64,000 bases of DNA, taken from IMG/VR virus record IMGVR_UViG_3300031414_000005, one strand, 5' to 3'. The notes under the pieces were generated by a model. The model worked only from the letters and a program-made list of their open reading frames with translations. It ran no database searches and was not told the DNA's origin. This DNA comes from a virus (lineage: Duplodnaviria; Caudoviricetes). Made by a program: the position numbers and the translations under genes. How positions within the stretch are numbered: the stretch's first letter is position 1; each line of letters starts with the position of its first letter. Below, piece after piece: positions 7,873 through 11,431 of the stretch.

Positions 7873-7883
7873 AAGGAATCCTG

Positions 7884-8144
7884 ATGCGCTTAACGGAAGC
7901 ATTGCAGGGTAAACATCCAAAACTGGAGGGGTGTTCGCACCCCTCCTTACCACCGCGGTTTAAATATCATGTCCTGACAAAGGCCAATTTGGAAACCGGA
8001 TGGCAAGAATGGCAATGTGTGGTGAACCCCAGCTTACATGTGGGGTATGTTGATTGTGTCCTCCCGGAAGAAGGGTGGGAGATCGTTAACATTCGGGCAC
8101 ATGGCGAACTTTTAAAAGCGGCATTCAAAAAGAATAAGGATTAA
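7884..8144 (+). CDS. Hypothetical protein, possibly a highly degenerate Tad2/DUF2829-like domain
   Basis: Begins MRLTEAL and has D...GWEIV near the end, matching the two ends of the Tad2 pattern weakly. Confidence 0.55.
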   Translation: MRLTEALQGKHPKLEGCSHPSLPPRFKYHVLTKANLETGWQEWQCVVNPSLHVGYVDCVLPEEGWEIVNIRAHGELLKAAFKKNKD

Positions 8145-8147
8145 CAC

Positions 8148-8858
8148 ATGACCGACAAAGGTATTGAAGTTGTATACATTAGCAAAGATATCCGCGCTTA
8201 TCTGCTGGAAAGCGTCGAGGATGTGGAAGTCTTCAGTCGTCACCACCCCAGTGTAGCACTTCCGAAAGGGTGGACCACACTGGTTGTCGTGTTGTACTAC
8301 GCTAACGGTGAAGAATTCATTATCGATATAAAAAGCGATGAAGTCGCTGAGGACTTTATCGCGCGTAACCGGTCAACAGATGGTGCGTTGCAATCAGCCA
8401 ATAAAGTCCGCGCCCATAACGGGTTGGCGTTATTAAGTCCGGCGACATTCATCGCTTACCTGAACGAGGATGGTTATTCCATGGACGGTTACTTGGCAGC
8501 TGCTAACAATGAACGGCGGGTTAATGGAGAACCTGAATACACCATGGAGGAATTCATCGCCAGTCGGCGCGGTGCTGTTCGTCTGAACGTGGAGAAATTG
8601 GAGGGGTGTTTCCCACAACCTGACCATGGTTTCGGTAAAGCACTGGAAGCCCTGAGTCATGGCAAACGTGTCGCACGTCGGGGATGGAACGGCAAAGAGA
8701 TGTTTGTTGAAAGTGTCTCTGGTGCCGAAGCCAAACTCGCTAACGGTTGCACTGTGGCATTGGAAGCGTTCTTTGTACTGCGTTCACCTAACGGTCGTTA
8801 TAACACCTGGGTGCCGTCAGTCAGCGATCTCATGGCACACGACTGGTATGAACTCTAA
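8148..8858 (+). CDS. tad2: Two-domain protein with a C-terminal Tad2 (DUF2829) Thoeris anti-defence sponge domain
   Basis: FGKALEALSHGKRVARRGWNGKEMFV...WVPSVSDLMAHDW matches the Tad2 pattern FGEAL..LK.G..V.R.GWNGK.MF...W.PSQ.D.LAEDW; domain spans about 8622-8858. Confidence 0.85.
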   Translation: MTDKGIEVVYISKDIRAYLLESVEDVEVFSRHHPSVALPKGWTTLVVVLYYANGEEFIIDIKSDEVAEDFIARNRSTDGALQSANKVRAHNGLALLSPATFIAYLNEDGYSMDGYLAAANNERRVNGEPEYTMEEFIASRRGAVRLNVEKLEGCFPQPDHGFGKALEALSHGKRVARRGWNGKEMFVESVSGAEAKLANGCTVALEAFFVLRSPNGRYNTWVPSVSDLMAHDWYEL

Positions 8859-8868
8859 GGGGTTTTAA

Positions 8869-9552
8869 ATGAAATACTGGGATGCTATTGGGATGTTAAC
8901 GTGGGGTGATGAGCGCATGGCTGTGCAGGCGAGTACACCTCAGCGTGAAGAAGCTATAATGCGTCAGCCAGATGGTGAGATCAAACTCGTCAACTTACGC
9001 AACGCTACTCTGAGTGATTACAACCACGCAGGAATGAACAACGACAACTGGGCGCTGGCACATGTCAGTAACGATGCAGGGGTGATCCATTTCCGTCACC
9101 TTACGGTTAGTAGCAATCTTACCGATGCCATTAAGTGCCACCCCGACTCGAAGTTGTACCGTCGTCTGAGTTGGGACCTTGATGTTTGGCTCGACCCGGC
9201 AAAGGGTCTGCGCAGTGACGATTCGTTAATGGGTTGGGAACCTTACGACCTGACAAAGGGCGAGTCGCTTGCAGAAGACTGGGTGGCAAAGACCCAGTAC
9301 ACCTCCGAACACACACCTGGAATTGAATACACCGTGGGGCAACGGATGGTGGGGTTCCACAAAAAGACTGGATTGACCAACGACCAGCTGATTGGCAAAG
9401 AAAGGATTGCCAGTGTCATCACCGTGTTGCACGGTATGCGGGTTGCGAGCTCATCCCCTGAACAGTGTCGGTTGTTAAGTGTGGCCATCACCAAACTGGA
9501 AGAGGCTGACCTCTGGGTAACGAAAGCCCTGGGGGTGTTTGATGACGCTTGA
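8869..9552 (+). CDS. Fusion of two degenerate Tad2-like domains and a C-terminal Acb2/Tad1-like helical hairpin
   Basis: MKYWDAIGML..G...NDNW, then R..SW...WL...LAEDW, then RLLSVAITKLEEADLWVTKA (Tad1/Acb2-type T..EEA.MW helix). Confidence 0.65.
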   Translation: MKYWDAIGMLTWGDERMAVQASTPQREEAIMRQPDGEIKLVNLRNATLSDYNHAGMNNDNWALAHVSNDAGVIHFRHLTVSSNLTDAIKCHPDSKLYRRLSWDLDVWLDPAKGLRSDDSLMGWEPYDLTKGESLAEDWVAKTQYTSEHTPGIEYTVGQRMVGFHKKTGLTNDQLIGKERIASVITVLHGMRVASSSPEQCRLLSVAITKLEEADLWVTKALGVFDDA

Positions 9553-9748
9553 TGAGGCAGTGGCCAGTGCAGGCGGGTGTCACCGTTATGTGAGTCGTCG
9601 TTGCTGGGCACATCATCCCAACCCCTACCGGATTTCGTACCTGGGTTTATCGGTAGTCTATGTGGTGTGTCGTAACCCGTTTGGGCGTATCCGTCCCTGG
9701 GTGCCCAAGAAAGACGACGCGGTTGCAACCGACTGGTATGTTATGTAA
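9542..9748 (+). CDS. Small Tad2 (DUF2829)-like protein
   Basis: MTLDEAV...VSRRCW...WVPKKDDAVATDW, 68 aa. Confidence 0.7.
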   Translation: MTLDEAVASAGGCHRYVSRRCWAHHPNPYRISYLGLSVVYVVCRNPFGRIRPWVPKKDDAVATDWYVM

Positions 9749-9755
9749 ATCCATT

Positions 9756-9780
9756 AGGGAGGGCTTACGCCTTCCCTTTT
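9756..9780 (+). terminator. Intrinsic terminator
   Basis: AGGGAGGGC-TTAC-GCCTTCCCT followed by T run. Confidence 0.75.
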
Positions 9781-9797
9781 AACCGAACGAGGGTGTC

Positions 9798-10088
9798 ATG
9801 AGTAAAACGTCCCACCGTCTGCAAAAGCAGCGCTCAGAAGCCATGAGCTATGAAGAGGCCATGGTCAAGCTGAATGCCGGGTTTGCTATCACGCTGAAGA
9901 CCTGGGGTGATCAGGGGTTTTATATTGTCAAGGTAACCGAAGCTCGTCCAGTGCGGGGATATGAGCCGGGGGATATCGTGCGTAAGTGGCGTTATGGTCG
10001 CTTCTACAGTTTCCCGATGAGCATGTATGTGAACTCCCATAACTGGTTGCTGTATGACGAGACGAAAGACCGCCCTGCTTATTACTGA
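9798..10088 (+). CDS. Degenerate Tad2 (DUF2829)-like protein
   Basis: MSYEEAMVKLNAGFAITLKTWGDQGFYI...SHNWLL. Confidence 0.6.
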   Translation: MSKTSHRLQKQRSEAMSYEEAMVKLNAGFAITLKTWGDQGFYIVKVTEARPVRGYEPGDIVRKWRYGRFYSFPMSMYVNSHNWLLYDETKDRPAYY

Positions 10089-10395
10089 TCGTGCTAAAAT
10101 ACCGCTTCTATTTATTTTAAAACAAACTTCCCCTAGATTCTATGTCCCGTACAGCTTTTCGAAGTCGTCACGAACCGGGATCGGGGGAACCACTACAAAG
10201 GATGCGTCTGCGCCGCCTGTCTGTGTTTAAAAGTCACTATCATACTCTACCACATTAACAGATACACTCTGGGGGAAAGGGGGTAAACTTTATAAAGGGG
10301 TTTATCAGGAAGAGGGGGAGGCCCCAAGCCGGACACGCTGACGTATTTATTCTAATCATCCGGAGCGAAAGCTCTTTTTAAGGACTGCTGAAAAA

Positions 10396-11388
10396 ATGAA
10401 AAACAAAACGCCGATCTATGATCCAAAACGCGGTACGCAACCCTTTAGATTTGAAGACGTGTATTGTGCAAAGAATGCAGAAGCCCGTCCTGATGAGATC
10501 GACCAGATGTACGTTCTCATGGTGGGTGACATGGTCGTCGGTGATGTGTGCTGGTATGTACACGCAGTAGACCCGGAAACGTTCGAACCCACCCTGGTCC
10601 AAATATCCACGAAAGTAAAACCCGATACCCCACTCATAAGGAACAACGACCAACACGTGCTGGCCGCCGTGACGTATGACGACCTGGTGCTACATCATGA
10701 AACAGTGGTGGCGGCGCAGAACCATACGCGTCCACTGGGGGTGGACTTGGTCAAGGCGATGTATGAAGGTTACGGGTTGAAGTTTGATCAGTTTGAACTC
10801 ATCAATACCTTGTACCTGTGTATGGAAGGGGATCGTGATGGTGGGCCAGGGGCGGTATCACCGGACTGGCGGGTGAACGTGGTGGCTAACGTGGCGAACG
10901 GGGGCAATGTCGATAACATCCGCCAGGCCTTTGACACTTTATTGCTGTCAGCGCCGGACATGAAACACCCGCTGGAGGAACTGATTGAAAACGGGATGAG
11001 GATGTTCCATCGCCAGTGTGTGATTCAAAATACCCAGGAGTCGATCACTTCACTGTTAGGCACGTTCTTCAGTATGCAAACGACCCAACCTAACACCTCA
11101 CGCTCAATCCAACACCTTGGAAAACGTGTGGGCGTGTTTTGCACCTCCAAAGATGACCGGCGGAGCCTCCACCCGATTCTGGCCATGGTGTTGGATTTGG
11201 TGGACCTGTCCCTGTGGAACCGCAGCGGATCGATTTCGTATCTGCTGGGTGACCAAGCCAACAGCCCGGAGCAGTTGGGGTATTACTTTGAATACTTCGG
11301 CGAAACCGGTACGGTGGAATACCCGGCGGGGATTATCATGGGTGGTGACAAAGGTGTCATCTTACTGCACCCACCAACCCGTAACTAA
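10396..11388 (+). CDS. Hypothetical protein
   Basis: 330-aa ORF, AAGGA RBS; no motif recognised. Confidence 0.8.
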   Translation: MKNKTPIYDPKRGTQPFRFEDVYCAKNAEARPDEIDQMYVLMVGDMVVGDVCWYVHAVDPETFEPTLVQISTKVKPDTPLIRNNDQHVLAAVTYDDLVLHHETVVAAQNHTRPLGVDLVKAMYEGYGLKFDQFELINTLYLCMEGDRDGGPGAVSPDWRVNVVANVANGGNVDNIRQAFDTLLLSAPDMKHPLEELIENGMRMFHRQCVIQNTQESITSLLGTFFSMQTTQPNTSRSIQHLGKRVGVFCTSKDDRRSLHPILAMVLDLVDLSLWNRSGSISYLLGDQANSPEQLGYYFEYFGETGTVEYPAGIIMGGDKGVILLHPPTRN

Positions 11389-11394
11389 GGTAAG

Positions 11395-11425
11395 CATCAA
11401 AAGAGGAGGCCCCAGGGCCTCCTCT
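11395..11425. terminator. Terminator between convergent genes
   Basis: AGAGGAGGCC-CCAG-GGCCTCCTCT stem; short T tract on the minus strand. Confidence 0.75.
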
Positions 11426-11431
11426 ATGACG

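Follow-up and report, generated by a model that had tools for sequence, protein, structure and literature searches.

A probable multi-domain anti-defence sponge combining an Acb2-family domain with a remote Tad2-like domain in a divergent nucleus-forming jumbo phage

Sponge proteins are one of the main means by which phages silence CBASS, Thoeris and Pycsar signalling. Acb2 and Tad1 assemble as hexamers, each a trimer of dimers, and Tad2 as a homotetramer whose pockets lie at the interfaces between protomers. HgmTad2 grips gcADPR with W21-N22-G23 and with W87/L88/S90/T92/D93, the diphosphate being bound by N22 and G23. Specificity varies widely among Acb2-family proteins: the ligand of some is not a CBASS signal but 3'cADPR. 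Unrelated sponges may also be joined in a single chain: Tad2-Sequestin and Sequestin-Acb4 fusions are common, and the Tad2-Acb4 fusion of Pasteurella phage Pm86 blocks Thoeris as well as CBASS (10.1101/2025.07.12.664507). Such fusions have also led to the discovery of new sponge families.

In this study we analysed a stretch of viral DNA of 64,000 nucleotides (Caudoviricetes; IMG/VR record IMGVR_UViG_3300031414_000005; hereafter the window), which encodes a 227-aa protein, P0001, in which two unrelated sponge folds are likely to be fused. The open reading frame is intact and lies exactly where a preceding sequence-only reading had placed it (8869..9552, + strand; start ATG at 8869, stop TGA at 9550-9552), with a Shine-Dalgarno-like site, AAGGGG, 6 nt 5' of the start codon. 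Comparison with the orthologue from a 73% identical relative (L006) gave a dN/dS ratio (Nei-Gojobori) of 0.16 for the whole gene and of 0.20, 0.32 and 0.05 for the parts encoding aa 1-72, 73-146 and 147-227, respectively. P0001 is therefore the product of a real gene, all three parts of which are coding and under purifying selection. The source genome is represented by a viral record of 233 kb that is complete and has terminal repeats, and the sequencing runs containing the stretch come from phyllosphere and soil metagenomes. Since its chimallin is ~30% identical to those of Erwinia, Salmonella and Proteus jumbo phages, the virus is a divergent nucleus-forming jumbo phage.

The C-terminal third of P0001 (domain 3, aa 147-227; 9307..9549, + strand) is, by sequence homology, a complete Acb2-family protomer carrying the Acb2/Tad1 hairpin, with a Pfam score just under the cut-off. 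PF24729 was the sole Pfam family reported for the protein; it scored 23.4 bits (E 6.7e-5) with the whole chain and 25.6 bits (E 1.4e-5) with aa 146-227, against a curated gathering score of 27 bits, and none of the domains of P0001 reached the gathering score of a Pfam family. The same family scored 21.9 bits with the homologue P0004 and 17.3-19.7 bits with P0005. A stand-alone protein of 92 aa (P0007), itself matched by PF24729 at 37.1 bits, aligns with aa 154-221 at E 2.1e-4, and another protein, P0008, matches domain 3 at E 3.2e-4 (both in 1.8e9 proteins). A profile built from these sequences found 80 viral and 50 bacterial-genome loci, the matches extending over aa 153-221 and thus almost the entire domain, and PF24729 was matched by 57 of the 58 relatives that were aligned (alignment A4; best E 8e-12). 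Among solved structures, the best sequence match of P0001 was CmTad1 (8kbb), over SPEQCRLLSVAITKLEEADLWVTK, and the family profile of domain 3 retrieved Tad1 8kbb at E 8.7e-4 and T4 Vs.4 (Acb2) at E 0.15. The recognition of an Acb2/Tad1 hairpin pattern in this segment by the sequence-only reading is thus corroborated by the PF24729 match, the Tad1 structure and the link through P0007.

Residues 153-221 can be aligned with the full length of the protomer in the Acb2 family (PaMx33 Acb2, T4 Vs.4), in particular in a subfamily of stand-alone proteins of ~75-90 aa (TFGQKAVGL...AITEAQTAQMWAVKALTW), the identity being 30-40%. Unlike these relatives, most of which are encoded by stand-alone genes (75-90 aa among the Acb2-like ones), the domain forms only one third of a longer chain. 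A column-by-column comparison revealed that ~20 positions which are near-invariant in the stand-alone proteins are retained in the fusion family, the kept hairpin residues being R201, S204, A206, I207, T208, A213, W216, K219, A220 and L221. R201 and T208 are invariant and align with an Asp and a Thr of T4 Vs.4, the counterparts of the cA3-binding residues R67 and T74 of PaMx33 (PMC10312549); through this equivalence, they correspond to the cyclic-trinucleotide (cA3/cAAG) pocket of Acb2. In contrast to the stand-alone relatives, 49 of 52 of which have F or Y before the first helix, the fusion family has V at this position, and P0005 has A. Because specificities vary so much within the Acb2 family, the ligand of domain 3 cannot be named from homology. 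An AlphaFold2 (AF2) model of the full-length protein, built on the five-sequence family alignment, was poor (pLDDT 41). It places helices at 156-162, 175-193 and 197-220 with low confidence (pLDDT 56-66), and its Foldseek matches were set aside as meaningless.

The preceding domain (domain 2, aa 76-146; 9094..9306, + strand), in which RRLSW-D-L replaces the RxGW-N-G of Tad2, is reasonably supported by profile comparison and structural models as a remote Tad2-like domain that is not filed as a member of PF11195. This family (gathering score 25 bits) gave no match with P0001 and stayed below threshold in the homologues P0003 (15.5 bits, E 0.025) and P0005 (14.1-18.1 bits, E 0.004-0.07), for which it was the only family to appear over the segment. 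When domain 2 was compared by hhalign with a reference alignment of 65 Tad2 domains from viral contigs, the two aligned end-to-end with a score of 24.2 (P 3.5e-4), which was reached by none of 680 column shuffles; the neighbouring genes orf69 and orf96 served as positive controls (93% and 87% probability). The block ending in LAEDW (aa 76-146), which the sequence-only reading had taken to be Tad2-like, hence resembles Tad2 beyond chance. None of the most conserved Tad2 columns is missing (A88, R99, W102, W123, D137 and W138; alignment A8), and these six hallmark residues are kept across homologues of only 30% identity. The nearest structures of the ESM Atlas model of domain 2, which was made without an alignment, were four PF11195 clusters (TM 0.58-0.68). 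Tad2 was also the best structural match of a separate AF2 model of domain 2, a result that is partly circular, the underlying alignment having been enriched in Tad2 sequences. The small family profile of domain 2 returned chance-level matches, and no Tad2 chain, from the PDB. Two composite alignments were made to deepen the input for modelling, in which MAFFT put Tad2 onto the Acb2 domain (A5) or split it over domains 1 and 2 (A6); neither was folded.

Domain 2 thus resembles the Tad2 proteins (SPO1 gp34.65, ModTad2, HgmTad2/AcrIIA7; PF11195/DUF2829) in its N-terminal helix motif, R-x-x-W, second W and closing (L)AEDW. Unlike them, it has a much shorter stretch separating its two tryptophans (20 residues), an insertion of three residues ahead of LAEDW and D-L instead of N-G, so that N22 and G23 of HgmTad2 are replaced by D103 and L104 of a W102-D103-L104 motif lying within an invariant RRLSWD. 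The second tryptophan of the pocket is kept (W123), and S90 and D93 of HgmTad2 align with T129 and E132. These substitutions suggest that the signal bound by domain 2, if any, need not be canonical gcADPR.

The assignment of the N-terminal domain (domain 1, aa 1-72; 8869..9084, + strand), possibly a degenerate Tad2-like domain of uncertain fold, is evenly balanced. The sequence-only reading had recognised a first Tad2 repeat in the block ending in NNDNW (YWDAIGMLTWG...NNDNW), which in our comparisons performed at chance level: against two Tad2 alignments hhalign gave P 0.14-0.15, and 30 of 80 shuffles were as good. Both central Tad2 tryptophans are missing, hhalign detected no similarity between domains 1 and 2, none of the five homologues has a Pfam or PHROG Tad2 match in domain 1, and its small family profile returned from the PDB chance-level matches and no Tad2 chain. 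PHROG scans of the separate domains of P0001 were uninformative. The one observation that points to Tad2 is the ESM Atlas model, which resembles a 66-aa cluster (49% PF11195) with TM 0.68/0.72. Language-model feature matches (0.81) fall below the trust level of the tool and serve as leads only, and the AF2 confidence over this region was 32-53. A complex prediction with two copies of aa 1-150 gave an ipSAE of 0.08, which speaks neither for oligomerisation nor against it. A phmmer match between aa 19-65 and ribosomal protein uL2 (E 0.087) was lost when the family profile was used and was attributed to chance.

The proposed order Tad2-Tad2-Acb2/Tad1 therefore stands for its C-terminal domain and is reasonably supported for one Tad2-like domain (aa 76-146), whereas its first Tad2 repeat is left with the ESM Atlas match. 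When 1.8e9 representative proteins were searched exhaustively with phmmer, and two word-indexed searches were added, we obtained four full-length homologues of 224-229 aa (95, 89, 73 and 30% identity), which brings the number of proteins found with this architecture to only five, P0001 included. A further search with the family profile added no new member, megablast and tblastn comparisons with 50,697 phage records produced no match, and among IMG/VR contigs the full-length family was found on no contig besides its own. Of the 130 sampled relatives of domain 3 (80 viral, 50 genomic), none is fused in frame to a Tad2 domain. A separate Tad2 gene was found within 1.5 kb of the Acb2-like gene in six of the 80 viral loci and in one of the 50 genomic ones. 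Since Acb2-like and Tad2 genes adjoin in this manner, an origin of P0001 by fusion of neighbouring sponge genes is plausible.

The sequence-only reading knew of no description of this architecture. In the literature searched we came across no Tad2-Acb2/Tad1 fusion, and a large survey of Acb2, Tad1 and Tad2 reports none, but the concept of sponge-sponge fusion has already been published (10.1101/2025.07.12.664507); the pairing of a Tad2-like with an Acb2-type domain is thus best viewed as a rare variant of established fusions. Like Tad2-Acb4, Tad2-Sequestin and Sequestin-Acb4, which are thought to block several signals, P0001 would combine two unrelated sponge folds per chain. Its Acb2/Tad1-type partner, however, is absent from the fusions of that report. 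Since the partners in those fusions form tetramers or dimers, and Acb2 and Tad1 form hexamers, the geometry of the assembly must differ. In this respect P0001 comes closer to Tad1 (CmTad1 8KBB, CbTad1 7UAV), with which it shares the hairpin motif SPxxCR..AITKLxE..MW and the arrangement of a ligand-binding part, here predicted, at the N-terminus ahead of a hexamer-building hairpin; Tad1 shows that such an N-terminal domain is compatible with a hairpin hexamer. Unlike P0001, Tad1 has at its N-terminus just one small beta domain, which bears no relation to Tad2, and the region of P0001 that precedes the hairpin matches Acb2-like proteins and not Tad1. Domain 2 differs from the tetrameric Tad2 proteins in standing in tandem with another small domain and in being fused to a member of a hexamer-forming family.

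The gene for P0001 is part of a tight co-directional run situated between the genes for DNA polymerase and chimallin. The gene directly upstream (8148..8858, + strand) encodes 236 aa, of which the N-terminal part has no family and aa 162-235 form a canonical Tad2 domain (RRGWNGK...TWVPSVSDLMAHDW; PF11195, 72.8 bits); a protein search with this domain returned one protein. Downstream lie a gene for a divergent Tad2-like protein of 68 aa (9542..9748, + strand; PF11195 24.6 bits, hhalign probability 93% to the Tad2 alignment) and one for a second such protein of 96 aa (9798..10088, + strand; PF11195 E 0.009, phrog_1048 E 6e-5, hhalign probability 87%). The upstream gene stops 10 nt before the ATG of P0001 and the ATG of the 68-aa gene (9542) overlaps the last codons of P0001 by 11 nt; P0001 and the three Tad2-like genes thus form a translationally coupled array. 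Neither a sigma-70-type promoter nor a convincing terminator was found on the + strand within the array.

The entire array is syntenic in L006. In the most distant relative (L005, 30% identity) the order is DNA polymerase, a 90-aa gene, the P0001 orthologue, a 95-aa Tad2-like gene and the chimallin region; here the 236-aa and 68-aa Tad2 genes are missing, and the counterpart of the 96-aa gene still adjoins the P0001 orthologue, as it does in L006. In Proteus phage 10 (L087) there is nothing between the DNA polymerase gene and the gene preceding that for chimallin. Because the same position is empty in this phage, the array is an accessory island, and it behaves as an accessory hotspot in chimalliviruses.

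Taking these data together, we consider it probable that P0001 is a multi-domain anti-defence sponge in which an Acb2-family domain is joined to one or more remote Tad2-like domains. If it behaves like Acb2 and Tad1, domain 3 would assemble into an interlocked hexamer which may sequester cyclic oligonucleotide alarm signals. Fused to its N-terminus would be the Tad2-like domain formed by aa 76-146, to which aa 1-72 may add another, more degenerate one. The layout would resemble that of Tad1, in which a hairpin hexamer core bears peripheral ligand-binding domains, the periphery being derived here from a different module. As the island also includes three Tad2 genes, one canonical and two divergent, it is probable that the phage deals with several nucleotide signals simultaneously. 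As a natural fusion between a Tad2-like domain and a hexamer core of the Acb2 type, P0001 would extend the range of described architectures, and the ligands of its two diverged pockets may not be the canonical ones. It also poses the structural question of how modules of the tetramer type and of the hexamer type are combined. The island as a whole would be a compact anti-defence locus with four or five sponge-type domains, carried by an uncultivated clade of nucleus-forming jumbo phages.

The distribution of constraint along the chain invites another interpretation, namely that P0001 is an Acb2-family sponge whose residues 1-146 are a lineage-specific extension with a structural, solubility, oligomer-capping or localisation role and no signal binding, the Tad2 ancestry of aa 76-146 being vestigial. 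Constraint is far stronger in domain 3 (dN/dS 0.05) than in the other two parts (0.20 and 0.32), domain 2 has lost the N and G of the gcADPR pocket, domain 1 has no detectable family, and other Acb2-like proteins, such as P0008 (273 aa), carry unrelated extensions. However, purifying selection acts on the N-terminal part as well, the six Tad2 hallmarks persist in homologues as distant as 30% identity, and the gene sits among Tad2 genes; we therefore regard a non-binding extension as unlikely, though deserving of serious attention. At the opposite extreme, all three domains might be functional, with two Tad2 domains and an Acb2/Tad1 domain of canonical specificities neutralising Thoeris gcADPR and CBASS cGAMP/cA3 together, as the sequence-only reading had suggested. 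The ESM Atlas matches of aa 1-72 and aa 76-146 to Tad2-like clusters, the conserved R/T pair of the trinucleotide pocket and the dual activity of the published Tad2-Acb4 fusion (10.1101/2025.07.12.664507) are in line with this suggestion. Arguing against it are domain 1, which lacks both central tryptophans and fits Tad2 profiles no better than shuffled sequence, and the wide variation of Acb2-family specificities. The pocket residues do not support it either, domain 2 being without the N-G of W-N-G and domain 3 without its near-universal aromatic residue. Moreover, the presence of a canonical Tad2 next door (72.8 bits) makes a second, redundant gcADPR site in P0001 less necessary. A simultaneous block of both systems with canonical specificities thus appears distinctly improbable.

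A further reading treats domains 1 and 2 as a tandem degenerate Tad2 pair which associates within the chain into a pseudo-dimer. At every two-fold axis of the Acb2-type hexamer, a pair of chains would thereby recreate a Tad2-like "tetramer", the W-D-L pocket capturing a signal beyond those of known Tad2 proteins and the hexamer core capturing cyclic trinucleotides. This is a rather improbable model, but if true, it would reconcile tetramer and hexamer symmetries in one particle. The location of the gene between core replication and nuclear-shell genes, where it is syntenic even in a relative of only 30% identity, might indicate instead that the protein is no anti-defence sponge at all and that its Acb2/Tad1 hairpin is solely an oligomerisation scaffold for some other early-infection function of a nucleus-forming phage. 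Against this stand the lack of the island at the same position in another chimallivirus, the fact that every recognisable neighbour is a sponge-family gene, and the retention in domain 3 of ligand-pocket residues and not of core residues only. We consider such a function very unlikely.

Several observations made in the course of this analysis concern other proteins and the surroundings of the array. P0008, a metagenomic protein, is of non-standard architecture: its N-terminal Acb2-like domain is followed by ~180 low-complexity-looking residues without a known family. P0006 (2445 aa), which had appeared as a relative at E 1e-7, was rejected as an adhesin-like repeat protein whose score is inflated by its repeats. 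A 30-residue motif that occurs 19 times in this protein resembles the linker between domains 1 and 2 (window 9031-9120, aa 55-84, GMNNDNWALAHVSNDAGVIHFRHLTVSSN); we judged this to be a chance beta-hairpin match.

Directly upstream of the array lies an 86-aa gene (7884..8144, + strand) for which no match was obtained with Pfam and PHROG family profiles. Together with its orthologues (L005:2139-2411; L006:4021-4287) it constitutes a group of 86-90-aa proteins with conserved Cys and His (EGC.HPSLPPRFKYHV...W.C...YVDCVLPE.GWEIVNI), and it keeps this position in relatives that have diverged to 30% identity. The ~160 N-terminal residues of the 236-aa protein (window 8148-8621), which precede its canonical Tad2 domain, are likewise without a family match, and hhalign gave no support to their being a further Tad2-like domain. 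On the 3' side, a gap of ~300 nt separates the array from a 330-aa gene (10396-11388), which is conserved in L005 and L006 and has a weak PHROG match to a virion structural protein (E 0.02). The block missing in Proteus phage 10 corresponds to positions 7873-11431 of the window, from the divergent DNA polymerase gene to a minus-strand 363-aa gene before that for chimallin.

Finally, stand-alone Acb2-like genes directly beside a Tad2 gene, on either side of it, were seen on the viral contigs L096 (1726-1950), L122, L154, L114 and L113. The neighbour at L096 encodes a minimal Tad2 of 66 aa (RQVWKGEK...EWTPLQEDILADDW), close in size to domain 2 of P0001.
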